A stretch of 64,000 bases of DNA, taken from the IMG/VR virus record IMGVR_UViG_3300044630_002233, positions 7,787 to 71,786 of that record; one strand, 5' to 3'. The notes beneath the pieces were generated by a model that was given only the letters and a program-made list of their open reading frames with translations, did not search any database and was not told where the DNA came from. This DNA is from a virus (taxonomy: Duplodnaviria > Heunggongvirae > Uroviricota > Caudoviricetes). How positions within the stretch are numbered: position 1 is the first letter of the stretch; each line of letters opens with the position of its first letter. Below, piece by piece: positions 4,895 to 28,033 of this stretch. Position numbers and translations under genes: made by a program.

Positions 4895-4918
4895 AGTGGA
4901 GTTTTTTACAACTCCACT
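4895..4918 (-). promoter_or_regulatory. Leader hairpin (AGTGGAGTT-loop-AACTCCACT) between the late promoter and the RBS
   Basis: Perfect 9-bp inverted repeat read directly from the sequence. Confidence 0.5.
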
Positions 4919-4934: not shown

Positions 4935-4942
4935 TATTTATA
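4935..4942 (-). promoter_or_regulatory. T4-type late promoter motif TATAAATA
   Basis: Minus strand reads TATAAATA immediately after the upstream stop codon and about 65 nt before the ATG at 4868. Confidence 0.45.
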
Positions 4943-5509
4943 TTAACTAACGAAAGTCAATGTAGCTACGTCAGATACAACTTCTGCTGCGCCACCTGCT
5001 GATGTAACTTTAACACGATATTGATCGCCAGTATTGCCAACCAATTGTCCTGTCAATGCTAGTGAAGCAGATGTTGCGCCAGACACGTTTGTCCAACGAG
5101 TTGAGCCAACAGCTTTCTTCTGCCATTGATATGCTAGTGTACCACCACCAGAAGATACTGTTGCTGAAACGGAGAATGTTGCTCCACCAGATGAAGTATT
5201 TTGGTCAGCAGGTTGAGTACCGATAGTGATAGTGTATGTAGCGTCAGCTGCTTTAGTGTCATCAGCACGGTCGCCAGCGTTTGCTGCTGTTTCTGCCATT
5301 GCTACTAAGCATTCAGCTTTGTGACGTGTGTCACCAGCTGCGTCTACGAATGTGCTATACAACCACCAGCCTGCGCCAGTGATACCACGCTTCTTGTTTG
5401 TTTCTTGTTGTGCTTCAGTGATGTCTACAAAAATTGCCTTAGCAAGATCTGCAGTACCCAAGTACTTTGGACGATCAGCATCTGCGTCTGTTTTACCCCA
5501 TAGTGCCAT
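4943..5509 (-). CDS. Ig-like domain protein, probable capsid or tail decoration (188 aa)
   Basis: C-terminal TSSGGATFSVSATVSSGGGTLAYQWQKK...YRVKVTSAGG resembles a Big/Ig-like beta-sandwich. Confidence 0.45.
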   Translation of the reverse strand: MALWGKTDADADRPKYLGTADLAKAIFVDITEAQQETNKKRGITGAGWWLYSTFVDAAGDTRHKAECLVAMAETAANAGDRADDTKAADATYTITIGTQPADQNTSSGGATFSVSATVSSGGGTLAYQWQKKAVGSTRWTNVSGATSASLALTGQLVGNTGDQYRVKVTSAGGAAEVVSDVATLTFVS

Positions 5510-5524: not shown

Positions 5525-7903
5525 TTATTTGTTTGAGTTTGGTAGGTGTAATGGATAACCAGTATAATCTACGCCAGTGCGTTTCTTACCAGTAGCTGCA
5601 CCTTTTTGTCTTGCCCCAGAAGTCGAACCTGCTGGACGTCCACGACCACGCTTCTCACCAGTTGGTGCTGGTTTCTTTTTTGGTTTATCTTCATCGTCAT
5701 CATCGTCGTCGCCTTGATATGATGAACCGTAAGATCCTTTATGAACATAACGACCGTTTTTATCAGTCTCATATTCGTCTAGTTGTTCGACTGACTCATC
5801 AATTTCATCAATCTCTTCTTCTATTACTGGAAGATTTTGAATGATATCTTCTTTAAATTGTTTATACTTTTTCAAGTCTCTCTCCTCTTTTTGTGCTTTG
5901 TCAGCTTGTAGTTTAGCAGCGATTGCCATCTGACGACGCTTCTCTGCGCTCTTACCTGCAAACTGAGGAGCATCTGATTGTTTGAAATCTTTGATTACAA
6001 CACCCATATCTGCCTTGGCCATATCCATCTTTTCGTCTAACTCAACTTCTTCATTAGTTGGTTTAGGTAAGTGTGGTGTTACTTTGAATTTATGTAGTTT
6101 GCCATCGCCAAGTTCTTTGTGCGCTTGGATATGAACAGACTTACCATCATTCTTAACTACTTTACCTTGCATCTTATCGCCAGTCTTACTTGCGTAGAAG
6201 TCAACGTGTTGTCCACTAACTTTATGGATATCCATCTTAGCGTGGTCAGGATGCATAACACCTTGTGACGCATACTCACGACCATTGATGCGCATTTCGT
6301 TCATTTCATATTCTTCTTTTGAGAAAGTAGAACGAGAAGTGTTGTAGTCGTGAACCGCACTGGTACGCTTTTTGTTTATTGCCTTACCGAAATCGTCAGC
6401 CTCAGCAGAAGTTTTGAATGGCTTCTTATGAACTACAACATTACCGTATGCGTTCATTGCTTTTGAATGATATGTTCCTGTAGTATTATGTTTTACTACA
6501 CCAGCATGATGCCATGTTTGGCTGGCTTCATCAATAGCAACATCTTCTTTGGTTAAACGATCAACTGCTTTATTAACACCAGCCTTACGTTTCCATGAAT
6601 TTGCTTTGTATTTGTTCGCAAGTGTTGTTGATGCTTCTTTCGAACTAGGTTTTCTAGCCTTGTCTGCCATGTTCTCAAAATCAGCACCGATTTTACGTTG
6701 AATAGTAGCATCATGCGCAGCTTTTTTGATGTAAGAACCCAAAGTTGATTTTGACAATTCATCAATCTGATCAACTTCTTCTTTCATCTTTCCAGTAGGC
6801 ATACCATTGATTGGTTTCTTAGTGGCTTTATATGCTTTATGTTCTGGTGTTCCCTTAATATATTTTCTATCAAGAGTTGGAGCAACTGGAGCAGTTTCTT
6901 TCATAGAAGCAGTTTTACGTTGCGCCTTGTCGCTCATGTTAGTGACTTTGCCACGTGGATCTTTGTTCTGCGCCTTCTTCCAATCACCCTCATAACTCCA
7001 GCTTTTTACTTTACCTGATTTATCTTTTACAACAGTAGAAGTTTCTTCGTTATGAAGACCGACGTAGTTGTGGTCATGAACCTTATAACCACTCTTCTTG
7101 TAATATGCAAGAGCAGTGTTGATAGCAGTATCTTTATCTGGAGCAGTTACTTTTGCTCTGCGCATCTTTTTCTCATTACGCTGAGAAACCATAGTGTGAT
7201 TTGGATTTGAAATAGTAACAGAAACAACGTGCTTACCTTCACACATTGATTTCTTTTTCGCTTCTTTCATTTCCTTCTCGTCTTCATCTTCTTCGCCTTC
7301 ATCTTCATCTTCACATTCACACTCTGCTTCTGGCATACCGCAGTCTTCGCATTTTTCATCTTCATCTTCAGTTTCGTCTTCGTCTTCGTCTTCTTCGCCT
7401 TCGTCTTTATCTTCTTTTACTGGAACACAATTTGGAACTTTCTTACCGTTCTTCATTTTCATTCCAACGGCAGTATAACCTTTCCAGCATGCATCCTTTA
7501 GACCTTCTTCTTCTAAGTCAACTTCTTCTGACATAGTAGAATGTTTTACTTGTGTCTTTGGACCATCGTTGGCTGAATGAAAATGAACGTCCTCGCCTTT
7601 GCGACGAGCAGTCCAGTGACGTCCAGTTTCATCTTTGAATTTATGTTCTTGTTCGTCTTTTAATTTTGCGATTGCTTGATGATGTTCTGGGTGCAAAGGA
7701 ATAGAGAAGTCTTTACCGTGATGTACAGTCTTCATTGTACCCCAAGAATATTTCTTAGTAGTAACTGTAGCTTCAGTAATGTCTTCTTTCATAGCATTTT
7801 TGCTCTTGCGTAGCAAGTGAAAGTCATGTGCATCAACTTTGCCGTTTTTGTTTTTATCAATCTTATGTTGATTGCCCTTTAAGGCTTCTTTAAAAGATAA
7901 CAT
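5525..7903 (-). CDS. giant charged protein with a poly-acidic block, Cys cluster, EF-hand-like loop and C-terminal AT-hooks (792 aa)
   Basis: DKNKNGKVDAHD EF-hand-like loop. Long D/E runs flank CEDCGMPEAECECEDE. The protein is Lys-rich throughout, has a DDDDDDED block, and ends in an AT-hook KRGRGRPAGS...GKKRTG. The N-terminus MLSFKEALKG is like the T4 internal-protein targeting motif. Confidence 0.5.
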   Translation of the reverse strand: MLSFKEALKGNQHKIDKNKNGKVDAHDFHLLRKSKNAMKEDITEATVTTKKYSWGTMKTVHHGKDFSIPLHPEHHQAIAKLKDEQEHKFKDETGRHWTARRKGEDVHFHSANDGPKTQVKHSTMSEEVDLEEEGLKDACWKGYTAVGMKMKNGKKVPNCVPVKEDKDEGEEDEDEDETEDEDEKCEDCGMPEAECECEDEDEGEEDEDEKEMKEAKKKSMCEGKHVVSVTISNPNHTMVSQRNEKKMRRAKVTAPDKDTAINTALAYYKKSGYKVHDHNYVGLHNEETSTVVKDKSGKVKSWSYEGDWKKAQNKDPRGKVTNMSDKAQRKTASMKETAPVAPTLDRKYIKGTPEHKAYKATKKPINGMPTGKMKEEVDQIDELSKSTLGSYIKKAAHDATIQRKIGADFENMADKARKPSSKEASTTLANKYKANSWKRKAGVNKAVDRLTKEDVAIDEASQTWHHAGVVKHNTTGTYHSKAMNAYGNVVVHKKPFKTSAEADDFGKAINKKRTSAVHDYNTSRSTFSKEEYEMNEMRINGREYASQGVMHPDHAKMDIHKVSGQHVDFYASKTGDKMQGKVVKNDGKSVHIQAHKELGDGKLHKFKVTPHLPKPTNEEVELDEKMDMAKADMGVVIKDFKQSDAPQFAGKSAEKRRQMAIAAKLQADKAQKEERDLKKYKQFKEDIIQNLPVIEEEIDEIDESVEQLDEYETDKNGRYVHKGSYGSSYQGDDDDDDEDKPKKKPAPTGEKRGRGRPAGSTSGARQKGAATGKKRTGVDYTGYPLHLPNSNK

Positions 7904-8350
7904 TTATTGTTCTCCGCTAGATTTTAATGTTGATGTCAACATCCAGTTATGTTTTTTATGAGCATCGATTCTACCTGCTAGATAATCCAGCAACCCTTGT
8001 TCATTTGCTGCTTCAGCTAATCTGAATGCTTGCATTAGTGAAGATAAAACTGATTGGTTTACTTGAACCAAATCAGCAATCATACCTTGAGCACCAGTAG
8101 CTGATGTATCCATCACCGTTCTATATTTATCAAACTCAATAAGTGTATGTGGAGCAACAGCACCCAATGCACGAATCTCTTCAGCTGTTACATCAATGCT
8201 ACCATAAACCTCTTCGTATATTTTTCCAAAGAAGTCATGTAACATTGGAAACAAAATTCCTTCTACATTCCAGTGGTAGCCTTGCGCCTTTAGATACATC
8301 ATAAAAGAATCTGCCAACACCACTTTCATTTGTTCTTGTAGTTCATTCAT
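7904..8350 (-). CDS. dps: Dps/ferritin-like DNA-protection protein
   Basis: YHWNVEG ... LHDFFGKIYEE matches the Dps ferroxidase-centre signature (HWNxxG ... H/D-E); the size, 148 aa, is typical. Confidence 0.65.
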   Translation of the reverse strand: MNELQEQMKVVLADSFMMYLKAQGYHWNVEGILFPMLHDFFGKIYEEVYGSIDVTAEEIRALGAVAPHTLIEFDKYRTVMDTSATGAQGMIADLVQVNQSVLSSLMQAFRLAEAANEQGLLDYLAGRIDAHKKHNWMLTSTLKSSGEQ

Positions 8351-8351
8351 T

Positions 8352-8633
8352 TTAACAGTCCCATGCTTTTCTAGACCAGTAATTTGCGCTAGTCTTATCG
8401 GTTAAATTTCCCTGACCAGAAGATCTTGCACAATAAGATTTCTTGCGGTTAGGATTATTCTTCTTAATACTTAAAGTTTTATCCCCGAAGTTTACTTTTT
8501 GCGCTTTACCGTCGCCATCTGGATCAACATATACCTTCGACTTCTTAACATCACCAGCCATTGGTTTGTTAAGTGGTACAGTCTTACCTTGATAGGTAGC
8601 TTCGTTTAGTAGGAACTCTTTAAATGTTATCAT
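8352..8633 (-). CDS. hypothetical protein (93 aa) with a CTS-like N-terminus
   Basis: MITFKEFLLNE start; contains VYVDPDGDGKAQKVNFGD. Confidence 0.4.
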   Translation of the reverse strand: MITFKEFLLNEATYQGKTVPLNKPMAGDVKKSKVYVDPDGDGKAQKVNFGDKTLSIKKNNPNRKKSYCARSSGQGNLTDKTSANYWSRKAWDC

Positions 8634-11404
8634 TTTGTGTACTTACTATGAGATAGTCTTGCTTTTTCGATCTGACGAACACGTGGAGCCAATTTCATCG
8701 CAATTCTATTTAACACTGGTTTCATCTTAGCGATGCGTTGCTCTAGACGTTCTTTCTCAGCAACTGATAGAGAAGCCAATGGTTTCTTAGCAATACGTTG
8801 CTTGATTGCTTTAATAGCAAGTCTACGTGCACGAGTGTTAATTACAGATTGTGGAGAAGATCTCTTTAAAGCAACTTTCGCTTTTGCCATACGTTTAGAT
8901 TTAGATCTAGCGAAACGTGTCTTTGCTTTAATGCGTTCTAGTCTTGAAAGAACTTCATTCAACGCTTCTTCTTTTAGGCTGTCTTCTAGTTCTTCACCTG
9001 TTTCATCATCAACAATAGCCAACTCTTCATCATCATATCCGTCAAGAATATCTTCCCAATCGTTGTGTTGGTTAACAATGTCATCAATCTCTTTATCGCT
9101 TAAACTAAATTCTTCAACTTCTTCTGAGAAACGATCATTACCTACAGATCTTTTTTCTCCTGGACCATCAGATCCAATCTTAATTAAACGAGAAGGATGT
9201 TTCTTTCCATCTTTACCCATTTTCTCATCAGCTGCTACAACATATCCCTCTTCAACTTCTTCTTTGCGATACTTAGAATATTCTTTTTCTAAATCTAGTT
9301 TACGTTGCTTAACGTGCTCTTGATCCACATCTTTGTTCATTGACAATTGATGTAGTGTTTTACTTTTCTCTTTGTAATCACCGTGTGGGTCTTTTGCGTT
9401 TAAAGCTGTTTCGCTTAAATCAAATTCTTCTTTTACGTTATGCTTGATATTGAAACTGTTGTCTCTGCGAACAGTTCCAAGATGCTTAGCACCTAATTTG
9501 TTTAGAGAGTTGCGACCACTAGCATTCATTGTGTGGTTTACATCATAGCTACCAGATTTATGTTTGTAGATTTCAATACCATCATCTGGATCTCTATGAG
9601 TTTTAACTTTATCGCTCGCATACTTCATTGCAGATTTTAAATCTTTGAAGTTTTCTTTTATGTTTTCTTTTTCTTGCTCATGCTTTTTAGATAGTGTTTC
9701 TTTTTCTCTAGCATGTTTTGCAGCAAGAGCAGCCTTAGCAACTTCACGAGCAAGTTTCTTAGGATCTCCGTTGGCTTCGCCTAAAGAATAGCGAACTTTT
9801 TGTTTTCTTAGGTTATCGTTTTCTGGTTGATTGTGTAAGGTTTCACCAACCTTAGTCATGTTTCTTTCTAACCAATCTGGGATACCATCATTGTCTGTAT
9901 CCACTTCAGTCATTCTACCTTCAGTATCATAGCTGAGTAACTTATTATAGTATGCTTCTTTTAATTTTTGTGGCATTAAGTTTGTATCAAACTCAATACC
10001 GATATCAGTTGCCATCTTCAACATACGTCTTAGGATTTCATATGACTCAGCATTCAATGCTTTGTTCTTAATCTTACGCAATCCCATGTTAACAATCTGC
10101 TCTGGGTTTGTTGTAGCTTCAACATTATCAACACCAAGTGTAGTAGCAATAATTCTAGCTGCTTTAATTTGATCAGCAGAACTTGGTTTTAATGTTTTGT
10201 TTGTTAGGTTTTCAATTACAGTACCAGTTACTTTAACAGAATCATTCATCTCTTCTTTACCTGCTTCTTTATAGTCAGACGCAAGTTTTTCGATATGGTC
10301 GCCATGCGTTTTTAAATAGTTGTCATGGTGTTCTGCTTGACCCATCTTAGCAAGATGCTCTCTTGCTCTATCCATATGAACTTTGACATTGTTGACTACT
10401 TCGGGGGATGCTTGTCTTGTTGCAATCGCAGCCTTAAGATGTCCAAGGTATTCGTCAACTTCTTTCATTGCGTGTAGAATATCTACAGCACTTGCGTCGC
10501 CTGAGTGGATACTAGTGTTGAACGCATCAACAACTGAAGTATCTAAGTCGAAGTGTTTAGTTGTGTAGCCTTGCCAGCTAACTTGATTGTGATCTTCTGG
10601 ATTTTCAAAATCTTCTTGAAGATACACGTCTTTAATCCAACGAGTAAATTTCACGTCTGTTCCTTCTTCTGTTAATAGTAGATGATTTGAACCACGTTTA
10701 ACGACAACGCATTGTTTATTCTCACAAACAACAACGTCACCAACATTAAAGATCTCACCACGGAAATATTTTTCACGTAGGTCATCAACTGTTATATTTA
10801 ATGATTCTTTAACTGGCGCAAGGTCATACGCTTTGCGAATCTCATTCATCAATCTGCGTGCATCCAAGTCGGTAAGAGTTTTAGGAACACCCTTTTTAAA
10901 CTCAGAGAACTTTCCAGCCTTTGCTGCTTCACGCATCTTTGTACCTGACATACCTGTAGCGTTATCTGAATCTGGATCCCTTTCACCAGCAGAAACTACA
11001 GTAACGGTATCAAAGTTGAATTCAGTTCCGTTATACTTTTCTAAAATCTTTTTGTATTCTGCGATACGGTCGCTACCTGCAACCATAACAATATTCTTGT
11101 AACGCTTGTTTAATTCTTTGGCAGCTTCGATAAATGTTCTTACTTGTTCGTTGGCTGCTTTAAAATTAGCTCCAGGAAACATACGCTGGAGGTAATATAC
11201 TTTACGGGAAACTGGGAGTGGGTTTTGCTTCTTGTCTTCAGTCTTAGAAGCATAAATGACATGGTCTGCTCCCTGAGCAGACGCAACTTTTTGAACAGCT
11301 TTTACTAAGAGTTCGTGTCCTGTGGTTGGTGGCTGGAAGCGACCAAACGCAAATACAACCTTCTTGGAAGGCAACTCTTTAATTAGTTGTCTATATTTCT
11401 TCAT
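8630..11404 (-). CDS. NadM-type nucleotidyltransferase (NMNAT superfamily) fused to an ~750-aa charged C-terminal region
   Basis: N-terminal FGRFQPPTTGHELL (archaeal NMNAT GRFQPFHKGH motif) and MSGTKMRE (equivalent to ISST/SGTEIR). The C-terminal ~750 aa are Lys/Glu-rich and low-complexity. The N-terminus MKKYRQLIKELP is like the T4 internal-protein targeting motif. Confidence 0.6.
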   Translation of the reverse strand: MKKYRQLIKELPSKKVVFAFGRFQPPTTGHELLVKAVQKVASAQGADHVIYASKTEDKKQNPLPVSRKVYYLQRMFPGANFKAANEQVRTFIEAAKELNKRYKNIVMVAGSDRIAEYKKILEKYNGTEFNFDTVTVVSAGERDPDSDNATGMSGTKMREAAKAGKFSEFKKGVPKTLTDLDARRLMNEIRKAYDLAPVKESLNITVDDLREKYFRGEIFNVGDVVVCENKQCVVVKRGSNHLLLTEEGTDVKFTRWIKDVYLQEDFENPEDHNQVSWQGYTTKHFDLDTSVVDAFNTSIHSGDASAVDILHAMKEVDEYLGHLKAAIATRQASPEVVNNVKVHMDRAREHLAKMGQAEHHDNYLKTHGDHIEKLASDYKEAGKEEMNDSVKVTGTVIENLTNKTLKPSSADQIKAARIIATTLGVDNVEATTNPEQIVNMGLRKIKNKALNAESYEILRRMLKMATDIGIEFDTNLMPQKLKEAYYNKLLSYDTEGRMTEVDTDNDGIPDWLERNMTKVGETLHNQPENDNLRKQKVRYSLGEANGDPKKLAREVAKAALAAKHAREKETLSKKHEQEKENIKENFKDLKSAMKYASDKVKTHRDPDDGIEIYKHKSGSYDVNHTMNASGRNSLNKLGAKHLGTVRRDNSFNIKHNVKEEFDLSETALNAKDPHGDYKEKSKTLHQLSMNKDVDQEHVKQRKLDLEKEYSKYRKEEVEEGYVVAADEKMGKDGKKHPSRLIKIGSDGPGEKRSVGNDRFSEEVEEFSLSDKEIDDIVNQHNDWEDILDGYDDEELAIVDDETGEELEDSLKEEALNEVLSRLERIKAKTRFARSKSKRMAKAKVALKRSSPQSVINTRARRLAIKAIKQRIAKKPLASLSVAEKERLEQRIAKMKPVLNRIAMKLAPRVRQIEKARLSHSKYTK

Positions 11405-11456
11405 TTTTACCCATCTATAAAATATTACTTTATCTATTATTTAGTCAATCTAGACT

Positions 11457-12695
11457 TTAATATATCTCTCGCCATTGCATTCCAACACCAACAGTAGTAC
11501 TTTGAGTACCTAGATTTGTAGCTACTAGAACATAAATCTCTGAGTCTGTAGAATCATAGTTCTGAACAATATAGTTTTTCTTGGCTGATGAAGGTAGATC
11601 TGGTCCTGGAGCACCACCAGCTTTAAGAGCACCTTGCGTAGAAGCACCGACCCATCCTGCATCGATACAATCACCCTCAGTATATGCCGTAGCATCCACA
11701 CAATACTCAACTCCACTATCATCATCGACTGGAGTCCATGTTGTTTCGGTTAAATTAGATGTGTTAGGTAACTTAATCAATTTCCAACCGATATTCTCAC
11801 CACTACTAAAAACAGACAAATTACCCATACGAACAATCATTCTATTTTTATAGGTTCTAAAGGCATTCTTTAAACGAATCGCCATGATTGGTAGAGTCTG
11901 CCCAGAAGTAAGAGTTCTTGGAATGTTTGCTTGCGCCCAATCGGTTCCAGCTTCAACATACCCACCCTCTGACATAACAGTAGAACAGATTTGATCAAAG
12001 TAACCACCAGCAGTTGTTCCCACATTAACAAGTTCGCAACGGATAGGTAGGTTTGGATTACTCATATAAACTGTTGGCAAATTATTGCTGTTGTTAAATG
12101 CATGAGCGATTACGTATTGCCCATCATGAACAAAACCACAACGAACTCTACCAACACCAAGCCATTGAAAGTCAATCCAAAATAATTGCGTTTTGGTTAT
12201 ATCTAAATTGAAAGCACTAGATCCAGTACCATCACACTTATCTCCATTCCATTGAGACTGAGGTATTCTTCTTTCTGTTGGCGCACCAGTAACATAAGTT
12301 CTAACAACAATGTTTAGTGTACCATCACCTGTTTGTTCAAAATAGATACCATCATTATCATCAAAATACCCTGTTCGTTTAGTTACGTTTGGGACTGCAG
12401 TATAAAAGTTAAAACTAGAAAGGATAACCTGACTTTTTCCAGGCATGTAATGATGATAGAATTTGCTTTGATGAACAAGTCTTGAGTTTGGATTGTTTGA
12501 AGTTGTTAATCTTGCGCATGCTTGATTGGGTTGAAACGATAGTGTTGCACCATTAACAGCATAATCAATAAAGTTTGGATCTAAACCAAAGATGTGTTTA
12601 TAATCACCAAGCGTATATGGTTCACTGGTGCGTCCTCTTCCAAACGCATCAACATTTTGACTCTCCTGAAATAAATACGTCATACTATTCTCCAA
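11457..12695 (-). CDS. hypothetical protein (412 aa), possibly virion-associated beta-rich protein
   Basis: Long ORF with no recognisable catalytic motif. Confidence 0.4.
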   Translation of the reverse strand: MENSMTYLFQESQNVDAFGRGRTSEPYTLGDYKHIFGLDPNFIDYAVNGATLSFQPNQACARLTTSNNPNSRLVHQSKFYHHYMPGKSQVILSSFNFYTAVPNVTKRTGYFDDNDGIYFEQTGDGTLNIVVRTYVTGAPTERRIPQSQWNGDKCDGTGSSAFNLDITKTQLFWIDFQWLGVGRVRCGFVHDGQYVIAHAFNNSNNLPTVYMSNPNLPIRCELVNVGTTAGGYFDQICSTVMSEGGYVEAGTDWAQANIPRTLTSGQTLPIMAIRLKNAFRTYKNRMIVRMGNLSVFSSGENIGWKLIKLPNTSNLTETTWTPVDDDSGVEYCVDATAYTEGDCIDAGWVGASTQGALKAGGAPGPDLPSSAKKNYIVQNYDSTDSEIYVLVATNLGTQSTTVGVGMQWREIY

Positions 12696-13363
12696 CCATC
12701 TCTATAAATCATCTGTATACCACCGTTGTCTATTTTTAAGATAAATCCGTTTGGATCATTATCAACATTTCCGTGAACAATTATTGGAAATTTTGAACAT
12801 CTTCCAGATTCATCTTTGATTATAAGGTATCTACCATTCTTAACAATAGAAGGTAAAGTTAATGTTACTGTGCCAGCATAATTTACGCCAATATAATAAT
12901 CTTTTCTACCAACTGTATATGAAGGTGTTGTTACTAGCGTTGTTGGGTGATCTAGGTTTACTACGTCACCAGCGCCACCACCTGGACCAGCGTTTTGTAT
13001 TTTAGCGATCCACTGCTCAAGAAATTTTATTTTAGCATCAACAGTTTTAAATTGTTTTGTTAATGGATCTACTGGAGCTGCAATACCAGCTGGTGTGCTT
13101 AGATACTTATCAATATTTGGTATCTGTAGTTCTGGTGGTGTAACACCGACTGGAGTTGGTATTGGTGTTTCTTCTAGTAGAGTTGGATTTTCTTCTACAA
13201 GTTTTTCTTTATGTTTTTGTAGAGAAGCCAACTCCTCAAACAATACACTCAAATCAGATTGAATGTTTTCTTTTACTTCCTTGATAATCTTATGCTCTGG
13301 ACTTTTCTCTTTAGCCTCACGCATAAGACTGACTAAATCATTTAGACTGCTCATCGCTGCCAA
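12680..13363 (-). CDS. hypothetical protein (227 aa), N-terminal coiled coil plus C-terminal beta domain
   Basis: ORF overlaps its neighbours by a few nt on the same strand. Confidence 0.4.
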   Translation of the reverse strand: MAAMSSLNDLVSLMREAKEKSPEHKIIKEVKENIQSDLSVLFEELASLQKHKEKLVEENPTLLEETPIPTPVGVTPPELQIPNIDKYLSTPAGIAAPVDPLTKQFKTVDAKIKFLEQWIAKIQNAGPGGGAGDVVNLDHPTTLVTTPSYTVGRKDYYIGVNYAGTVTLTLPSIVKNGRYLIIKDESGRCSKFPIIVHGNVDNDPNGFILKIDNGGIQMIYRDGWRIV

Positions 13364-14580
13364 CCTTTGATAATTTCTGGCGAGAAGTTTGCCTTACTAA
13401 ACTCTAAGCGATCAACGATCTTTACTGCGCCACCACGCAAGTGGTCAATAGCAACAAACCCTTCTACGCCAGTCGTCTTGAATCCATTAGCAGTCTTTAA
13501 GAAAGTCTTCATAGATCCAGCTTTATTCATCTTGGCGATAATCAATTTCTTGGCTTCAGTCAAAACATTAGCCAACTCAAATACGCTCTCGATAGACTTC
13601 CTGTCATTGTTTGCAAAGAAAGCCATTACAGCTTTGCGCTTTTCGTTGACACCAGCCTTACCTTTTTCTGTCTTCAACTTATCCATGTCTTTCTGATATT
13701 TCCCATGGATATAATCAAACAACTCATCAACGTGTTTCTTTGGATTAGAGATAGTTTCTCCAGCACGCACCTTGGAGTTATTGAAAGTCTTGACCAATGT
13801 AAGCAACTCGGTATTGTTAGAAATGCTGTTTAGAGTATTAGCATTAATAGACTTGAACAACACACCTGCTTTTGATAGTAGGGAAGTTACTTCAGTAGTT
13901 TCTGATTCCGTAAAGGTAGCAGTTCCAGAAACATCTTTGTAGTTGGCGTCATCCATCCAGATTGAACCAACCTTGTTAAATTTGTCAACAATACCTTTAC
14001 CGAAAGTAGCCTTCATTGTTTCAAACGAACTACCTTCATATGTAGTATGCCAAACAACACCAATCTTAGCAGCACGTAGTTTAGTGGCAAGAGGACTATC
14101 ATATGGAACAGCGTATACAATAGTGTTAGGATGGAAGGTTACATACTTCTTACCATCAATCGTTTCTGTTTTCAAATCGTTAGTGAACATCAAGTCGCCT
14201 TGATAAACACCAGACTTGATGCCCAACTTCTTAAACTCTGCCAATGCAACTTTCAGTTTAGCTGCCAAGTCGCCTTCAGTATCCGCATCGATTTCTTTTG
14301 GTGTCTTATAAACCTTTGGCTCTTTATTGAAGACACCTTTCTTTGCTACAAAGAATTTGCCATCACGTGGATCAATACCAGCAAATACAGCTGGCGCACC
14401 GTCCCACTTAACAGTAGTAGTAATTTTTGACTTGCTATTACCAGCCAACATATCACGCAAGTCTTGTAGGAAGTTAATTGCTTTACGTGTACCCAGAACA
14501 CCTTCGTTGAAGATTAAATCCTCAACGTGTTCCATATGGGTATTCTTTTCTTCTCTAATATACTCTTTTAAGTTTAACAT
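13351..14580 (-). CDS. rnlA: RNA ligase 1 (T4 RnlA-like) nucleotidyltransferase
   Basis: Motif I TVKWDGAP (KxDG), and motifs IV/V EGFVAIDHLRGGAVKIVD aligning with T4 RnlA EGYVAVMKDGSHFKIK. CTS-like start MLNLKEYIREE. Confidence 0.55.
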   Translation of the reverse strand: MLNLKEYIREEKNTHMEHVEDLIFNEGVLGTRKAINFLQDLRDMLAGNSKSKITTTVKWDGAPAVFAGIDPRDGKFFVAKKGVFNKEPKVYKTPKEIDADTEGDLAAKLKVALAEFKKLGIKSGVYQGDLMFTNDLKTETIDGKKYVTFHPNTIVYAVPYDSPLATKLRAAKIGVVWHTTYEGSSFETMKATFGKGIVDKFNKVGSIWMDDANYKDVSGTATFTESETTEVTSLLSKAGVLFKSINANTLNSISNNTELLTLVKTFNNSKVRAGETISNPKKHVDELFDYIHGKYQKDMDKLKTEKGKAGVNEKRKAVMAFFANNDRKSIESVFELANVLTEAKKLIIAKMNKAGSMKTFLKTANGFKTTGVEGFVAIDHLRGGAVKIVDRLEFSKANFSPEIIKGWQR

Positions 14581-15194
14581 TATTTCACCAACTTTATTTG
14601 TCCATCAGGTAAAGCGAAGTAGGCATTAAACCTAATCATCGGAAACTCTCTACCTAATTTTAGGAATTCTTTTAGGTTGCTCATGCTGTCATCAAACAGA
14701 GCAACTCTTGAAAATTGTTTAGTCTTTAAATACTCACGAATAATAATCGCCTTCTTAACAGCAGGGATATTATTGTCTTCCATATTACCAGCACGTTCAA
14801 CACGAACCTTGTCAATATCGAAACCATGCTTACGGAAGGTTGCTAGAAATTTGTCACGATTATCAAAGTTCGCTCTAGCAGTAACAATGATAACTTTGTT
14901 CAAAGGGTTTCTGTCTGTAGCGGAAACCAACTTGCTTGCTGTATTTAGCATCTTAGCGATTGGCTTCGATTCTTTATAAAACTTGGCAGCATCTTTGAAT
15001 TCAGAAAAATCGAAGGACTCACCAGCCCCAAGTTTGTAATTATTAAACTCTTGGTTGGTCAGCTTCTTTAGGACTGCGCCATCTTTTTTAACAGCGATCT
15101 GGGCAGTGGTATGGAAGAGGGTGTCGTCAATATCGAATATGGATAGACGACCCAGCGTTTCTTCTTCTTTTAGTAGATATTCTTTAAACCTCAT
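14580..15194 (-). CDS. HAD-family phosphatase (polynucleotide 3'-phosphatase-like)
   Basis: HAD motif I FDIDDTLFH, motif II IIVTAR, and motif IV ALFDDS. No P-loop kinase domain is present. Confidence 0.55.
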   Translation of the reverse strand: MRFKEYLLKEEETLGRLSIFDIDDTLFHTTAQIAVKKDGAVLKKLTNQEFNNYKLGAGESFDFSEFKDAAKFYKESKPIAKMLNTASKLVSATDRNPLNKVIIVTARANFDNRDKFLATFRKHGFDIDKVRVERAGNMEDNNIPAVKKAIIIREYLKTKQFSRVALFDDSMSNLKEFLKLGREFPMIRFNAYFALPDGQIKLVK

Positions 15195-15200
15195 ACCTTT

Positions 15201-15229
15201 ATTATACCTGAATTCTGAATTATTGTAAA
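15201..15229 (-). promoter_or_regulatory. Early sigma70-like promoter (TTTACA-N17-TATAAT)
   Basis: Minus strand reads TTTACAATAATTCAGAATTCAGGTATAAT. The -10 ends 6 nt before the ATG at 15194, so the mRNA may be leaderless. Confidence 0.6.
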
Positions 15230-15235
15230 GTATTC

Positions 15236-15252
15236 CCCTACGGTTTGTAGGG
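15236..15252 (-). terminator. Stem-loop CCCTAC-N5-GTAGGG immediately upstream of the early promoter (PeSL-like cassette)
   Basis: Inverted repeat read from the sequence. The same hairpin-plus-promoter arrangement recurs at 35.5 kb and 38.05 kb. Confidence 0.5.
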
Positions 15253-15263
15253 TTATTATTTTA

Positions 15264-16688
15264 TTAACTAACCTTGTAGTGGACAGAGGAAAAGGCATTC
15301 ATTTTCTTCGCTGCCAGATACATTTTTTTGTATATCGCTGCAGGGTTTGACGCTGTTTCTAATGCGTAAATATAATACAAAAGAACCACTGCTCGTTTGA
15401 CTTCATATTCTGACATCACATCAGTCATACCAGAAACCTTAACCATTTTGAATTGATCCTTAGCTACGTAGGCAGCAAATTTCTCATAGAACTTTTGATT
15501 ACCCATAGCCTTAATTTGAACAGCAACAGTTCCTGCTACTTTCGATACTTTCTTCATATCATCAGTTACAGTAATCATTCCTGGGAATTGAGTATTTAAC
15601 ATGTCTCTAGAAATAGCGCCATCCCAAACTTTGGCTGTCTCTGGTTGCCCTTCGCCATATGTATTAAGTTCATTAGATTTACCACGTGGTCTAAATCTAA
15701 ATCTGTAATTTACATCATCTTTAAACACTTTAAATTGGGGAAGTATATCGAAATAAGAATTAGAAACTTTATACTCGAACTTTTTCCATGGTTTGGTATA
15801 ATTGATGTTCTTAATGTATTTTGCATCAGTCTCAATCTTAGAAATTGTAGCCTTTGGACCAGCAACCTTTTTCAGAGAGATACCAATAATTTCTTTAGAA
15901 ATAAATTTATCTTCAACAAATTTGTTTAGGTCATCGATACCAGCACTCTCAGCGAGAAGTTTTTTATAAAGCGCATCAACAGTTGTTCCTAACTTTGATA
16001 TGCTTGTTTTCTTAACTGCCCATATATCTGATGGGTTCCAGTTATCTTTACTATCAGGAAGAACTTTTGGATCAGTTATTTGATTTAGAAAAGCAGGTTT
16101 CTTCGGATTACTGTCACGATAGAATTCATAACTTTTCATGCTAGACTTTGGTATAACAGTTAGAATAGCATTGATAGTTTTCTCAAAGGACTCATGCCAT
16201 GTTTTATCAAAATCAAACTTAACTGTCTTATTGATTAAATCTTTGGTTGGCATTTTGCCATTGTTAGCGATATACTCCAGACAGAATCTAGTTCCATCTT
16301 CTTGTTGAGCAGTTGTAGGTGTTTTAGAAGAAAGCGCATTGCCTTCCTGATCTATAACATTCTTGTAACCACCACCAGATTTATAGATGTTTACTTTATC
16401 TGCGCCAACTGTAATTAAAAACTTATTGTCTTTTTGATCAGTTACCTTAGCAGTTTTGATTGTGCTGATCTCAGAGATAGCAGCGATAAAACTTTTGGGG
16501 TCAACAATTTTTAACATTGGAACCCCACCTGTTATTTTCCCATCATCTGTTTCGAGAAAGGTAACAGCAGCAAAATCTTTTAATTTAGGAATGATGACTT
16601 TTAATGCTGGCTTCTTATCCACCAGCATATTAAATCCTGCCTTACCCTGAAAATATAACTTTGCCATGCGCCCTCTTATAACAGTCAA
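15264..16688 (-). CDS. hypothetical protein (474 aa)
   Basis: Long ORF with no clear motif. A possible PD-(D/E)xK-like stretch, PSDIW...EIIGISLKK, is weak. Confidence 0.45.
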   Translation of the reverse strand: MTVIRGRMAKLYFQGKAGFNMLVDKKPALKVIIPKLKDFAAVTFLETDDGKITGGVPMLKIVDPKSFIAAISEISTIKTAKVTDQKDNKFLITVGADKVNIYKSGGGYKNVIDQEGNALSSKTPTTAQQEDGTRFCLEYIANNGKMPTKDLINKTVKFDFDKTWHESFEKTINAILTVIPKSSMKSYEFYRDSNPKKPAFLNQITDPKVLPDSKDNWNPSDIWAVKKTSISKLGTTVDALYKKLLAESAGIDDLNKFVEDKFISKEIIGISLKKVAGPKATISKIETDAKYIKNINYTKPWKKFEYKVSNSYFDILPQFKVFKDDVNYRFRFRPRGKSNELNTYGEGQPETAKVWDGAISRDMLNTQFPGMITVTDDMKKVSKVAGTVAVQIKAMGNQKFYEKFAAYVAKDQFKMVKVSGMTDVMSEYEVKRAVVLLYYIYALETASNPAAIYKKMYLAAKKMNAFSSVHYKVS

Positions 16689-16694
16689 TATAAA

Positions 16695-17414
16695 CTATTT
16701 AGGTCGTTTACATGCACGAAGTTTTCGTTCGTACTTTCGATCCCACTTAGAAACCTGCTGAATTATCTTTGGTATGGCTTCGTTGTTACGGAAGTCATAG
16801 TCAAATGTTCTGAGGATGTAGTGGAGGGTTTTAGAATCACGTTTCTTTTTACAACGTGTCAGCAGTTCGCTGATAGTGATGTTGGGTCGTTTTATTTTAA
16901 AGTCGAGATAAACGCAATGAGCATATGCTTGAATCTCATCAAACTCAGAAAGGTATTTTCTCTCTTCGGTTTTCTTTGATGTCTTGGCTTTCTTGTAAGG
17001 AACAACATACCCAGACCATTCATCGCCACGTCTATCATATTGCATGAAGTGTATCAACTCATGCATCTGTGTCTGGATCAATCTATACTTGAAAGATTCC
17101 CATGCTTCGTCAGTAAACTGGAATTTGTTATAGTCTTTCTTGCCGTGGATTATCAGAGTACATTGTCTAAACTCCGCATCATATTCACCACCGACAGCCA
17201 TGTAGTTCTCATATACTTTGGCTTTTGAAAGTTCTGGTCGCCACTCTATTTTGGTGCGCCATTTTTTGAAGTAATTTGTTAGACCTCTTTTATCGTTGCG
17301 ATACTTGTCTAGGTCTACCCACACTTTTGCAGGAATGAGTTTGGCTCTAAATGGACGCTCATAAAAATTGAGCATCTCCATCCAATCGAAGTTGAGTTCT
17401 TTGAGGAAGCGCAT
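16695..17414 (-). CDS. putative zinc metallopeptidase (HExxH)
   Basis: Single HELIH motif (TQMHELIHFMQYD); the protein is basic. Confidence 0.4.
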   Translation of the reverse strand: MRFLKELNFDWMEMLNFYERPFRAKLIPAKVWVDLDKYRNDKRGLTNYFKKWRTKIEWRPELSKAKVYENYMAVGGEYDAEFRQCTLIIHGKKDYNKFQFTDEAWESFKYRLIQTQMHELIHFMQYDRRGDEWSGYVVPYKKAKTSKKTEERKYLSEFDEIQAYAHCVYLDFKIKRPNITISELLTRCKKKRDSKTLHYILRTFDYDFRNNEAIPKIIQQVSKWDRKYERKLRACKRPK

Positions 17415-17477
17415 GGTAAAATTATACTCCCCGTGGCAAAGTTAGAGTCCACCACATATTTAGGGTTTAGCATAATT

Positions 17478-17930
17478 TTACAATGTAAAAAGGACTGGAG
17501 CCTCCATACCCTTCTCCCAGAAATACAACTCTACTTCTGGTGGTAGTTTCTTCCTCATTCCTCTAAGAACCTTTTTGTTGTCCTCATAGTGTCGTTGAAC
17601 ACCAAGTTCCAAAACTTTGGAAGTCTTGTAGTTTACAACATTTTCTACAGTTCGTGTATCCGTAAGTAAGTGGAAACTTAGGACACGTCCAGTATAGTTT
17701 TTATCCAGCCATTCTTTTGTGATATGGTGGATTTTTGATTCAGCCTTCCTAGCTGAGATGGCATGGAAGGTTTCCTCTACTGGTTCAATAAGACGTTCCG
17801 CAGACGCATACCATTCATAAAGAAAATCTTTACGTGCACGACGTTGCTCGCCATTCATCCTACCCCACTTTGTTTCGTTAGCAGGTGGCTGAGCAGCGAG
17901 AACACCGTCAATATCATAAGATACTATCAT
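17478..17930 (-). CDS. 5'(3')-deoxyribonucleotidase-like HAD nucleotidase
   Basis: MIVSYDIDGVL (DxDGVL, the motif of the NT5C family). The likely start is the ATG at 17930, which overlaps the upstream stop (ATGA); the track ORF begins 19 codons earlier. Confidence 0.5.
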   Translation of the reverse strand: MIVSYDIDGVLAAQPPANETKWGRMNGEQRRARKDFLYEWYASAERLIEPVEETFHAISARKAESKIHHITKEWLDKNYTGRVLSFHLLTDTRTVENVVNYKTSKVLELGVQRHYEDNKKVLRGMRKKLPPEVELYFWEKGMEAPVLFTL

Positions 17931-18934
17931 AGGAAACTTAGATCTATCTTGTCTGTATTTAAAATATACTGTTTCTGCGCCAGCCAAATCTTCTCACGTT
18001 TCTCAACTGAGAGAGAAGCAAACTTCTCGATCGCTTCCGCATTATCCGCAGGAAAACACCAAACCAATCCGTTGTTTCCTTGTGGTGCGCAGACAGGAAT
18101 GCCAGCATAGACAGCATGGTAAGCACGACCAGTACGCCAGCCTGAACGCTTATGCTTGTCATCATAAACAGCAAGACAACCATGATACTTCTGATAGAAA
18201 GCACGTCTATCTCTTTGCTGTGGATTCTCAACGATATTCAACCCAACGTAGTCTGACCATTCAGTTTCTTTACCTGCTACTTCAAGATATGATGACTTTG
18301 TATATTCTTTGAAGTGTTTAGTGCGACCATTTGGGCGACCGATATAAACTACCTTCTCGATTGACCCAGCATGAAAGTTTGCGAAGTCCATACCTGAAGC
18401 CATCGGTAAGTCAATAGTAGTTGTACCTTCTGGGCATTTTAGAATGGTAGCAACTTCAGATGGTACTGCAGCATTAGCAGCGATAGTCCAACGTGACCAA
18501 TCTTCATCAGGTAACAACTCCCAAAGGAATGGTAGGTCTGGGTCATCGTTAAGGAACACAATTTTACCCTTGTGCGCTTTGATCATCTCAACAGTTTTAT
18601 CCCAATACTTCTGATAGAACTGTAGGTTAGTACCACCAAACTCAAGCACAAGTGTATCACACTCTTGGTAAATATCAAAAGATTCAAAGCCATCGTTGGC
18701 TGTTGCTTCAGTTGGTTCTGATAAAGGGATGATACGCATACCTGCGCCAAGTACGTTCTTAAAAAATGCTACACGTTTCTCTACCCATGCACCACGAATA
18801 CCATTCTCTTGGTTAGTTAAACCAATCTTACCTGATACCCTGCGGTAGCCAATCTTCTTTCCTGTGTTACTAGAGTTGGCTGAGTAGAACCACTCTAGTA
18901 ACTTTTCTTCACCTAGAAACTCATGTAATGACAT
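17927..18934 (-). CDS. T4 beta-glucosyltransferase-like DNA glycosyltransferase (GT-B fold)
   Basis: KIVFLNDDPDLPF is comparable to T4 BGT KIYYLFTDIRLPF. VVYIGRPNGRTKHFKEY is comparable to BGT VIYGGSFRSGQRESKM. The length, 335 aa, is close to BGT at 351 aa. The similarity is recalled from memory, not aligned. Confidence 0.4.
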   Translation of the reverse strand: MSLHEFLGEEKLLEWFYSANSSNTGKKIGYRRVSGKIGLTNQENGIRGAWVEKRVAFFKNVLGAGMRIIPLSEPTEATANDGFESFDIYQECDTLVLEFGGTNLQFYQKYWDKTVEMIKAHKGKIVFLNDDPDLPFLWELLPDEDWSRWTIAANAAVPSEVATILKCPEGTTTIDLPMASGMDFANFHAGSIEKVVYIGRPNGRTKHFKEYTKSSYLEVAGKETEWSDYVGLNIVENPQQRDRRAFYQKYHGCLAVYDDKHKRSGWRTGRAYHAVYAGIPVCAPQGNNGLVWCFPADNAEAIEKFASLSVEKREKIWLAQKQYILNTDKIDLSFL

Positions 18935-18940
18935 ATTATG

Positions 18941-20254
18941 TTATCCTAAAAAGTCTGCGAGAGAACCAGCACTTGCCTTTGGATGATAAGTGTGAAGCAT
19001 ATGTTCTCCACCTTTCTCACGCAAGAAGTCATACCATTCTTCCTCTTCCCACATTCCTGGAGAAACACCATTCCACAATTTCTTATACAAGCGATGCTCA
19101 GTATTCAAGCGACGTTGTTCAACGTATTCAAAACGAAAATCTTCATATTCTTTGCTACCAAGTTCTAGCATTTTTTCACGGAAGTATACAACCAAACTTA
19201 CACGCTCTGAACCTTCTTCACAAACAATAGGTGTATTGCCATGGATGATTTCGTGGTTATTAACCAACAACAAATCACCTGGACGCACGTTAACAGCCAT
19301 ACGGATCTCAGGGAAAATCAAATACCCACCTGAGTAACGACCATCGTTAGATAATGTCAACAGATTTGAGAGACCAGAATCCAAATCACCAGCATCACGA
19401 TGAGCAGCAGTGCGGAATGTTTTGTTTACAGTAACTGTTGTAAATGGTGTTTCTGGGATAAGGAATCTAGAATCAATTTTCTTAGCTGCTGCCATTTGAT
19501 TGCCATATCTCCAAGGCAACAACTCAGCAAAACCTTTAGCCAAGTGCTGTAAGAATGGGTATGCCATTTTAAACTTATCAAAGTTGTCTCTTGTATAAGT
19601 TGTAGCACGACCATAAGGGATACGTGGGTAGCGATCAAACCAACCAGCGATACCAGAATCAACTGGATTGCCATAAGATGTTTCGCTAATCATCTTCATG
19701 GTTTCTTCACATGACTTAGCACGTTCTTCTGGCGTCATAGTTTTGATGGAATCAACCCACTCATCAAAATTAAATTTACCACGGAAACGTGAGATAACCC
19801 AAACATTGTTTTTGCCAGAGCCAAGTGCCTTTAAACGTGACTCTGCTGTTGGATATTTTGAGCGAACATTTTCAATTGGGTCACCAGAAAATAGAGATGC
19901 CTTGCGACCATCAAGAAGCGCATTAATCATTTCTTCCTGATAGTTAGTAACCCACTCACGTCCTTCACCATTAACTTGTGTTCCAGCTTTAATACCTGAA
20001 GCCAAGCCACGATTCTCTGTTCGTTGAGCAGCTTCTCTTAGTCCATGATATGCTGCGTCTTGTTCTTCTTTAGTAAAGAAGTTCTTACGGAATTTGAAAG
20101 CGATCTTCTGTTCGTTTGGCGCTTCACCATAACCAACTGGCAAATAGCAATCAGTATCTTCCTCGATTAGAATATCATAATTTGATTCATCAAGAAACAT
20201 ACCCATAAGATTTTCACAATCATGTTTAGTTTCTGCTACAATAACTCGTGTCAT
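18941..20254 (-). CDS. 2OG-Fe(II) dioxygenase, TET/JBP-like (nucleobase hydroxylase candidate)
   Basis: AAHRDAGDL...LSNLLTL is comparable to TET2 AHAHRDLHNM...STLVCTL. The distal His is in HEIIHGNTP, followed by RVSLVVYF (the RxS 2-oxoglutarate contact). It sits next to a glucosyltransferase-like gene. Confidence 0.4.
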   Translation of the reverse strand: MTRVIVAETKHDCENLMGMFLDESNYDILIEEDTDCYLPVGYGEAPNEQKIAFKFRKNFFTKEEQDAAYHGLREAAQRTENRGLASGIKAGTQVNGEGREWVTNYQEEMINALLDGRKASLFSGDPIENVRSKYPTAESRLKALGSGKNNVWVISRFRGKFNFDEWVDSIKTMTPEERAKSCEETMKMISETSYGNPVDSGIAGWFDRYPRIPYGRATTYTRDNFDKFKMAYPFLQHLAKGFAELLPWRYGNQMAAAKKIDSRFLIPETPFTTVTVNKTFRTAAHRDAGDLDSGLSNLLTLSNDGRYSGGYLIFPEIRMAVNVRPGDLLLVNNHEIIHGNTPIVCEEGSERVSLVVYFREKMLELGSKEYEDFRFEYVEQRRLNTEHRLYKKLWNGVSPGMWEEEEWYDFLREKGGEHMLHTYHPKASAGSLADFLG

Positions 20255-21669: not shown

Positions 21670-21955
21670 CAACACCACCTGAATAAACAATTGAATTATT
21701 TTTTAGTCCTTCTTCAATCAAATGATGAAGGATCTCACCTACAGTTTGCTCGAAGGCTGGCTTGTCAAACTTTTCGTCTTCAATAACATTATGCATGGTA
21801 TATTCAAACGACAACTTTGCAGACGAACCATCGGGCATTTCTGATACTTCTACTTTACCATATTCATATATTATACCTGAAAATTGACCACCTGTCAACT
21901 CTACAGTATAGATTGCAGTATCATTTGTGTGTTCAATCAGCTTGAACGGTGTCAT
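21629..21955 (-). CDS. hypothetical protein (108 aa)
   Basis: ORF between uvsX and gene 41; overlaps both slightly. Confidence 0.4.
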
Positions 21956-28025: not shown

Positions 28026-28033
28026 TATTTATA
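28026..28033 (-). promoter_or_regulatory. T4-type late promoter motif TATAAATA upstream of the long hsp20 leader
   Basis: Minus strand reads TATAAATA, about 190 nt upstream of the hsp20 ATG. Confidence 0.35.

Follow-up and report, generated by a model that had tools for sequence, protein, structure and literature searches.

A Dps-type mini-ferritin in an uncultured T4-like phage lineage and the association of its clade with highly charged and head-assembly proteins

What is the role of a Dps-type protein in a T4-like phage? The question is raised by a 64,000-nucleotide stretch of the IMG/VR virus record IMGVR_UViG_3300044630_002233 (positions 7,787 to 71,786 of the record; hereafter the window), which encodes on its minus strand, at positions 7904-8350, a protein of 148 amino acids (aa) with the peptide YHWNVEG at residues 25-31. 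A sequence-only reading had recognised a Dps/ferritin-like gene, i.e. a relative of a host nucleoid and iron-detoxification protein, and had suggested that the product might protect replicating DNA from Fenton damage, provide iron to phage enzymes or act as a DNA-binding shell inside the capsid. Our analysis identifies the gene as a bona fide Dps-type mini-ferritin with an intact ferroxidase-centre signature. Three checks had been suggested with that reading, namely a profile search, an inspection of the iron ligands and a comparison with related phages, and each of them bore out the family assignment. On balance, it probably encodes a functional, tail-less, 12-subunit mini-ferritin that detoxifies iron and peroxide and that is co-transcribed with, and works together with, a family of large charged proteins represented in the window by the 792-aa product of the adjacent gene.

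The gene is an exact open reading frame (ORF) from ATG to TAA, and profile, sequence and fold searches agree with the family proposed from the sequence. The Pfam family Ferritin (PF00210) matches residues 10-143 with 70.1 bits against a cut-off of 24.5 (E=2.5e-19), PHROG 3636 matches with E=1.8e-25, and the 52 PDB entries found by sequence at E<=0.01 are essentially all Dps-family proteins or Dps-based constructs, led by Dps PA0962 from Pseudomonas aeruginosa (Pa Dps; 8ff9, E=2.6e-21), MrgA from Bacillus subtilis and Dlp-1 from Bacillus anthracis. An AlphaFold2 model based on 45 homologs (mean predicted local distance difference test score, pLDDT, 95.1; predicted template modelling score, pTM, 0.90) contains helices at residues 3-28, 34-61, 70-76, 87-114 and 118-146, i.e. 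four long helices and, within the long loop that joins helices 2 and 3, the short helix that is the signature of Dps. In a Foldseek search of the PDB with this model the top 50 matches are all Dps, the best being Pa Dps (template modelling score, TM, 0.90; root-mean-square deviation 1.2 Å; 34% identity). Three Dps equivalog models of NCBIfam (E. coli Dps PRK09448, haloarchaeal DpsA and cyanobacterial DpsA) match as well, every score being far below the curated cut-off (30.7, 41.6 and 39.8 bits against 114, 170 and 300), and the protein is thus a Dps that is orthologous neither to the E. coli protein nor to the DpsA groups of archaea and cyanobacteria. A classical ferritin or bacterioferritin was rejected, as the ExxH motif occurs nowhere in the 148 residues and the fifth helix is absent from the model; likewise, the best fold and sequence matches are Dps proteins instead of 24-mer ferritins.

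In crystals of Pa Dps soaked with iron the di-iron ligands are H37, H49, D64 and E68 (PMC10002758), and a HMMER alignment places H26, H38, D53 and E57 of the window protein on these residues with an offset of +11. Their codons can be read directly (H26, 8273-8275; H38, 8237-8239; D53, 8192-8194; E57, 8180-8182), as can that of W27 (8270-8272), which is the conserved Trp (radical trap) adjoining the first His; together, the codons of the predicted inter-subunit ferroxidase centre span positions 8180-8275 of the minus strand. YHWNVEG and further His, Asp and Glu residues downstream had been named as the ferroxidase signature, and H38, D53 and E57 are indeed the downstream part of it. All five residues are invariant in 45 close and distant homologs, in a larger set of 166 sequences (48 from syntenic phage loci, 39 from other viruses and 75 from cells, the remainder being references) and in the 53 multidomain fusions described below. 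As the collections were seeded with peptide patterns including HWNVEG, the invariance of H26 and W27 is partly due to selection; H38, D53 and E57 lie outside the patterns used for the genome collection.

Based on what is known of the family, twelve subunits would assemble into a hollow shell of about 9 nm in diameter, in which H26 and H38 of one subunit and D53 and E57 of its two-fold partner would form an inter-subunit di-iron site next to W27. A ferritin-like three-fold pore is predicted at the turn between helices 4 and 5, where E113, E117, Q118 and D122 (codons at 7985-8014, minus strand) correspond to D125, D129, residue 130 and D134 of Pa Dps; E113, E117 and D122 render all three pore positions acidic. 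Through these pores Fe2+ would enter and reach the 12 ferroxidase sites, where H2O2 would be the preferred oxidant, and the resulting ferric mineral would be stored in the cavity. Both Fenton reagents would be removed in this way, protecting the replicating phage DNA and the infected cell. Pa Dps carries out H2O2-dependent oxidation of Fe2+, and a dps mutant is sensitive to H2O2 (PMC10002758). Moreover, host dps is among the most strongly induced genes in lytic infection of Yersinia ruckeri (PMC7354516), and a second phage lineage has the same Dps clade near HSP20, another stress protein, which supports a stress role. Fenton protection is what the family suggests by default, by analogy with its characterised members.

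Does the protein bind DNA as well? Tail-less Dps proteins of the type found in Listeria innocua and B. anthracis detoxify iron and peroxide and do not coat DNA. The window protein is tail-less, too. It is acidic (isoelectric point, pI, 4.97; net charge -8 per subunit), H26 is preceded by only 25 residues (MNELQEQMK...) with a net charge of -1, the median in cellular relatives being 36, and the C-terminal tail, SSGEQ, comprises five residues with neither Lys nor Arg, so that a Lys/Arg-rich N- or C-terminal tail as in nucleoid Dps of the E. coli type is found at neither end. The same holds for the phage clade, in which the N-terminus is about 11 residues shorter than in cellular relatives and the pI is 4.6-5.95 throughout, again without basic tails. 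The designation as a host nucleoid protein fits E. coli-type Dps, not tail-less Dps of this type, and a DNA-binding shell is not supported by the acidic, tail-less chain. Given its acidity and the missing basic tail, the protein is unlikely to bind DNA, and its protection would be chemical rather than by DNA coating. One might still argue for a nucleoid-type Dps that coats and compacts host or phage DNA as in E. coli, since PHROG 3636 and many database entries bear the name "DNA binding protein" and since the closest relative of solved structure, Pa Dps, has DNA-cleaving activity in vitro despite having no basic tails (PMC10002758). However, the names are inherited from the family, and the short N-terminus, the Lys/Arg-free C-terminus and the acidic pI extend across the viral clade, and we consider this explanation very improbable.

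According to its gene content the window belongs to a T4-like myophage. It encodes a DNA polymerase with 55-56% identity to the enzymes of cyanomyophages and of marine single-cell-derived viruses, and in addition a T4-type head protease, a scaffold protein, a major head protein and a portal. The nearest cultured phages, as found via the cytidylyltransferase-like neighbour of Dps, are Pelagibacter phage HTVC008M and the Methylophilales phages Melnitz; neither HTVC008M nor Melnitz gave a Dps match, though the gene order is the same, and gp131 of HTVC008M, a small gene in the equivalent slot after the cytidylyltransferase, was rejected as a Dps (BLASTP E=0.9). As a megablast search of 25 kb against GenBank phages returned only short gp41 matches, there is no close cultured relative.

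Among uncultured phages, 48 fetched loci have Dps in the same slot (DUF6267, cytidylyltransferase-like giant, Dps, charged giant, phrog_613, DUF7207 ... primase), and this synteny is kept down to about 40% Dps identity. When loci were fetched via the neighbour DUF6267 instead of via Dps, 29 of the 31 that span the region contained Dps at its fixed position, i.e. the gene is near-core in this uncultured T4-like lineage. Two loci of the same lineage, L235 and L247, whose DUF6267 is 70% identical, are naturally Dps-minus and have ORFs of 793, 321 and 665 aa instead. The ratio of nonsynonymous to synonymous substitution rates (dN/dS) is 0.155-0.172 against relatives of 78-84% identity, with a median of 0.105 over 60 pairs. 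Strong purifying selection together with near-universal retention at a fixed position shows that Dps is maintained in the lineage. Its GC content of 0.38 equals that of the flanks, and an identical protein is found on at least 20 contigs (35 index blocks), one IMG/VR contig matching with 100%.

In a neighbour-joining tree the window protein, 87 viral sequences and two sequences from short contigs of metagenome-assembled genomes (MAGs) form one clade, sister to 73 cellular proteobacterial sequences and Pa Dps; the tree carries no bootstrap values and its sampling was pattern-driven. Genuine cellular Dps proteins are 34-42% identical to the window protein, and cyanophage S-SRM01 has a Dps that branches outside the viral clade and lies in a different genomic context. 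By sequence, then, the window Dps is a member of a virus-only branch with a short N-terminus that is found on phage contigs. The MAG matches (51-52% identity; Aquiluna and Bacteriovoracaceae) were rejected as host Dps, since their contigs carry the phage block and are mis-binned phage. The contigs concerned are L086 (CAZKLA010000004.1, 'Aquiluna' MAG), L087 (JBBARF010000078.1, 'Bacteriovoracaceae' MAG) and probably L088, with DUF6267, the cytidylyltransferase-like giant, Dps, the charged giant, DUF7207 and others, and such MAG-binned phage contigs (L086, L087) are unfit for host assignment unless further evidence is added. Dps is a typical cellular gene and the two closest 'genome' matches are in MAGs, which might suggest that the gene was picked up from a host not long ago and rides along as a neutral passenger, or that cellular DNA contaminates the assembly. 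Against this stand the mis-binning of these contigs, the separate viral clade, the uniform composition, the low dN/dS (about 0.1-0.17), the fixed slot and the recurrence of the identical protein. This explanation is effectively refuted, and we give it next to no credence.

The same Dps clade also occurs in a second, unrelated phage lineage (L009, L016, L019, L022, L026, L027 and about 30 other loci; further examples are L068 7392-7817 and L072 812-1399). There, Dps lies about 0.9 kb downstream of a weak match to the terminase large subunit in 24 loci, and its neighbours include a CHAP-domain protein (16 loci, usually just downstream) and the HSP20 small heat-shock protein (13 loci).

Which genes accompany Dps in the window? 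It lies in a tightly packed run on the minus strand. Upstream, a gene for a 93-aa DUF6321-like protein (8352-8633; phrog_7595, E=2.1e-12) has its stop one base before the Dps ATG, and its own start is overlapped by the gene for a 924-aa protein (8630-11404; phrog_3041, E=2.7e-67) that combines a cytidylyltransferase-like domain (about residues 9-268) with a long charged extension (164 Lys+Arg and 152 Asp+Glu in total) and has homologs in HTVC008M, Melnitz and cyanomyophages. Downstream, the ATG of the gene for the 792-aa charged protein (5525-7903; 146 Lys+Arg, 143 Asp+Glu) abuts the Dps stop codon, and a 188-aa gene (4943-5509; phrog_613, E=2e-56) is the last of the predicted operon; its homologs in cultured cyanomyophages are labelled as head or virion structural proteins in annotations retrieved by tblastn. 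Pfam detects no domain in the 792-aa protein and only sub-threshold matches in the 924-aa protein. The earlier description of Dps as sandwiched between two giant charged proteins therefore holds on the downstream side, where the 792-aa protein follows directly, whereas on the upstream side the 93-aa gene separates Dps from the 924-aa protein. In strains with 100% identical Dps (L168-L171) the giants differ in length (924 or 997 aa; 792, 782 or 636 aa), i.e. they change far more rapidly than Dps, through indels or altered repeats. An EF-hand-like loop, DKNKNGKVDAHD, at 7823-7858 (minus strand) corresponds to residues 16-27 of the 792-aa protein and sits within its conserved N-terminal module (residues 6-49); Pfam calls no EF-hand there.

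A sigma-70-like promoter candidate (11419-11448, minus strand; TTGACT, a spacer of 16-18 nt and AATATT/TATTTT), identified by consensus match, is located in the 52-bp gap upstream of the 924-aa gene, and a terminator-like hairpin with a T-rich stretch (4895-4918, minus strand), likewise a consensus match, follows the 188-aa gene at the predicted end of the Dps transcription unit. No T4 late promoter was found upstream of the run, the only ATAAATA nearby (8124-8130) being inside the coding sequence. Because of the tight packing, the sigma-70-like site, the hairpin and the lack of a late promoter ahead, we infer a single early/middle unit of five genes, in which Dps would share the sigma-70-like promoter with the 924-aa, 93-aa, 792-aa and 188-aa genes. 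Five TATAAATA motifs (4935-4942, 28026-28033, 45069-45076, 47542-47549 and 63647-63654) fit T4-type late promoters; all are on the coding (minus) strand, each in a short gap immediately ahead of a gene, that of the scaffold protein among them, and their total count is not above chance. The one at 4935-4942 comes after the Dps operon, not before it. The location had been called replication-proximal, which agrees with the position of the block between a gp41-type helicase gene (20266-21690) and a primase gene (1135-2244), with the DNA polymerase gene at 23502-25991.

Two 2-oxoglutarate (2OG)-dependent Fe oxygenases had been noticed in addition, and both are recovered in the first 20 kb, namely a Tet_JBP match at 18941-20254 (E=2.3e-23) and a 2OG-FeII_Oxy_3 match at 301-879 that is borderline (26.6 bits against a cut-off of 27). 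Both lie within 12 kb of Dps and may speak for an iron depot, i.e. Dps would capture host iron early and release it to the Tet/JBP dioxygenase, the 2OG-Fe(II) oxygenase and the R2 subunit of ribonucleotide reductase. In line with this, genes for the large and small subunits of ribonucleotide reductase are located about 7-10 kb downstream in the syntenic loci L001 and L004, and radical-SAM genes lie near Dps on one 184-kb contig. All of this is co-occurrence only, however; HTVC008M and Melnitz gave no Dps match, the capacity of the shell is a few hundred iron atoms at most, and there is no evident mechanism for their release. An iron depot is compatible with the detoxification role and with either location of the protein, and we regard it as rather unlikely. 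On the 184-kb viral contig (L054, 10705-13741) Dps lies about 2.3 kb upstream of the two radical-SAM-like genes, which encode Fe-S enzymes. The Tet/JBP-type 2OG-Fe(II) dioxygenase gene of the window adjoins the gp41 helicase gene, and also the gene at 17927-18934, and in L001 (64-2723) the gene after Tet/JBP shows a faint resemblance to Glycos_transf_1; this setting suggests phage DNA hydroxymethylation and possibly glycosylation.

Where would Dps act, and with which partners? A Foldseek search of predicted viral structures (BFVD) revealed Dps-fold domains of 28-42% identity inside much longer proteins of uncultured Caudovirales, several of which are named prohead protease. When 1.84 billion cluster representatives were searched exhaustively, 3865 matched the window Dps, and among the best 150 of these (37-53% identity) 53 are multidomain proteins of 240-1951 aa with the Dps domain in N-terminal, C-terminal or internal position. 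The top match, P0121 (777 aa), has tandem Dps domains (39-185 and 203-347) and, behind them, a long charged tail of low complexity. The Ferritin domain was found in all 53 fusions, each with the full set of ligands. By Pfam, the partners are Peptidase_S78 in six, Phage_Mu_F in one and DUF6321 in one; by PHROGs, several families of head maturation proteases have 6-7 members each among the fusions and a portal-annotated family has 6, and major-head-protein families occur as well. Once the Dps domain is masked, 21 fusions fall into a single connected group of head-morphogenesis partners. Two fusions are also found next to capsid genes. P0224 (Ferritin + Peptidase_S78) comes after TerS and TerL and is flanked by the portal gene and the major capsid gene, and P0249 (DUF6321 + Ferritin) is located just upstream of the capsid gene. 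A literature search on prohead protease and Dps yielded no description of such fusions, and a clade-level tie of Dps to capsid-assembly proteins thus appears to be undescribed in the literature searched.

The 792-aa family takes part in these fusions. Eight fusions are homologous to the 792-aa neighbour in the Dps-masked grouping and four more by direct BLAST, and the module comprising residues 6-49 of the 792-aa protein immediately precedes the Dps domain in P0132, P0135, P0143, P0145, P0147, P0149 and P0153. P0145, an 801-aa giant-Dps fusion, occupies the same syntenic slot on a T4-like contig of 154 kb, and two independent assemblies agree in its nucleotide sequence throughout; its ORF, like those of P0224 and P0249, is uninterrupted. 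An apparent Dps-giant fusion in L217 was rejected as an artefact, the tblastn alignment having run through a stop codon. The fusions in relatives and the gene layout point to a physical cooperation, and Dps is probably co-expressed with the 792-aa charged family and binds it; it would act physically with these proteins in the cytoplasm or be carried with them into the head. Since Dps is free-standing in 103 of the 104 distinct ORFs from the fetched viral loci, the share of one third among the representatives, which are clustered at 50% identity, overstates the frequency of fusions in genomes.

A further link to the head is provided by the N-termini of the neighbours. The internal proteins of T4 are directed into the capsid by a targeting sequence, MKTYQEFIAE (PMC8442874; concept in PMC9026906). 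A similar motif, M-x(1-3)-[FYL]-[KRQHT]-[EDQ]-[YFALM]-[LIV], opens 6 of the 13 genes between 5.5 and 19 kb and none of the 59 elsewhere in the window, a concentration with a Fisher p of 1.1e-5 for a pattern that is post hoc, having been written after the data were seen. The six genes, all on the minus strand within a block at 5525-18934, are those at 5525-7903, 8352-8633, 8630-11404, 13351-14580, 14580-15194 and 17927-18934, and the N-termini are MLSFKEALKG, MITFKEFLLNE (the 93-aa protein), MKKYRQLIKE, MLNLKEYIREE, MRFKEYLLKEE and MSLHEFLGEE. The motif is kept in homologs, e.g. MLKLKEFIAEE in DUF6267 proteins. Moreover, two neighbours of Dps have homologs labelled virion or head protein in cultured cyanomyophages, annotations that could not be traced to experiments. 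On the basis of sequence, the block may encode capsid-internal proteins.

Taken together, these observations allow for a head-associated Dps, i.e. a dodecamer located in the prohead, piggy-backed on the charged neighbours with their capsid-targeting-like N-termini or brought there otherwise, where it might shield the packaged genome from iron and peroxide damage or serve as a 12-armed hub that organises internal head proteins; ferritin-like cargo in encapsulins would be an analogous case. The fusions of same-clade Dps domains to prohead proteases, MuF and major-head-protein families, the positions of P0224 and P0249, the motif-bearing block, the virion- or head-labelled homologs and the T4-type head protease of the window would all fit, as would ferritin-like gp346 of phage G, a Dps-fold protein detected in the particle proteome (PMC12484599). 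The window Dps itself, however, does not have such an N-terminus: the pattern is absent from MNELQEQMKV and from its homologs (MDELKLALKT, METLIEMMRK), residues 3-28 form helix 1 and L-x-E is not conserved. Additionally, the free-standing form dominates and the fusion-rich representatives exaggerate the role of fusions, the promoter candidate on the operon is sigma-70-like and not late, the motif is post hoc, the 'virion protein' labels could not be followed back to an experimental source, and a 9-nm shell could not pass through the tail on ejection. We therefore regard a head-associated Dps as possible, though doubtful. The same tentative standing applies to the wider, joint proposal that the viral Dps clade is a component of the capsid interior, built into the prohead protease in HK97-type phages and recruited non-covalently in the T4-like lineage by the flanking charged proteins with their capsid-targeting-like N-termini, with a ferroxidase-competent dodecamer acting as 12-armed hub for internal proteins and/or as an encapsulated mini-ferritin that shields the packaged genome from iron and peroxide damage.

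We lean towards the cytoplasm as the probable site of action of the detoxifying Dps, to which the promoter evidence and the stand-alone, motif-less form of the protein point. Several observations weigh against this picture. The acidity of the pore is relaxed across much of the viral clade, with Lys at position 117 in 12 of the 48 syntenic sequences and Asn at position 122 in about half, and iron storage may therefore not be the selected property everywhere in the clade. The second-shell position four residues after H38 is Gly in the window protein and Asp or Glu in many Dps; the three reference Dps have Glu there and most of the nearest cellular relatives have Met, and the position is thus evidently tolerant. 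Promoter-like sites are not enriched over shuffled sequences (29 found, 33 expected). Finally, the recurrent fusion to head-assembly proteins within the clade would not be predicted from a purely cytoplasmic housekeeping role.

How does the window protein compare with known systems? Compact (about 145-156 aa), acidic Dps proteins with the same fold and ligand pattern are found in L. innocua and, as Dlp-1 and Dlp-2, in B. anthracis; they are 23-29% identical and are chromosomal stress genes outside phage operons. Pa Dps (8FF9), which belongs to the cellular sister clade and has a longer N-terminus, shares the four di-iron ligands, the Trp, the lack of tails and the acidic ferritin-like pore. 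The two proteins differ in Y27 of Pa Dps, part of a Tyr network, where the window protein has F16, and in the Glu of Pa Dps that corresponds to the Gly four residues after H38; E58 of the window protein stands where cellular relatives have Arg. H2O2-dependent ferroxidase and DNA-cleaving activities have been measured for Pa Dps, whereas the phage protein is known from its sequence.

Phage-encoded Dps is known as a class. It has been described in 'Gratiaviridae' and 36 other gut phage genomes and read as protection from oxidative stress, seven Lactobacillus phages being cited as earlier cases (PMC8008677), and Lactobacillus plantarum myophages have Dps near their replication genes, with the same interpretation (PMC6669764). 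These reports thus share with our case the oxidative-stress reading and, for the Lactobacillus phages, the vicinity of replication genes, but none of them covers the aquatic T4-like lineage, a link with giant charged proteins or head-protease fusions. GenBank phages contribute 24 records (about 13 distinct phages) with a Dps homolog, all below 37% identity, e.g. Clostridium phage phiCT, Aeromonas phage LAh, Salmonella phage pSal-SNUABM-01 and Synechococcus phage S-SRM01. Our literature search found no description of Dps in aquatic T4-like phages or of aquatic viral Dps; Dps goes unmentioned in the S-SRM01 paper, as do ferritin and iron in that on pelagimyophages. With regard to the literature searched, the aquatic T4-like lineage and the association with head proteins appear to be new.

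Three systems bear on the latter. Gp346 of Bacillus phage G is phage-encoded and has a Dps-like fold (TM 0.87 to the model of the window protein), and it is the only case found with experimental evidence of presence in the virion (PMC12484599); it differs in having 15% identity and 239 aa and in belonging to an unrelated jumbo phage. The highly charged, length-variable products of the Dps block with their targeting-like N-termini resemble the internal proteins IPI-III of T4, from which they differ in that Dps lacks the motif and the block proteins have no sequence homology to the T4 proteins. Encapsulins enclose an iron-oxidising cargo of the ferritin superfamily, which is not Dps, in an HK97-fold shell and recruit it by a short C-terminal targeting peptide. 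The protease-Dps fusions encoded between portal and capsid genes would give the same topology; the likeness is an analogy only, and the window phage has no encapsulin.

If it is a plain phage Dps, the protein adds the aquatic T4-like lineage to the phages with their own iron and peroxide defence, which is useful, also for interpreting viral auxiliary genes, and unsurprising. The protease-Dps fusions make a role in the capsid directly testable in the laboratory. If the head linkage is functional, a ferroxidase-active cage inside capsids would be a new class of virion cargo and would suggest oxidative decay of packaged DNA as a selectable trait for free phage particles. Such a cage would also be a natural precedent for cage-in-cage nanostructures and the phage counterpart of encapsulin-ferritin compartments.

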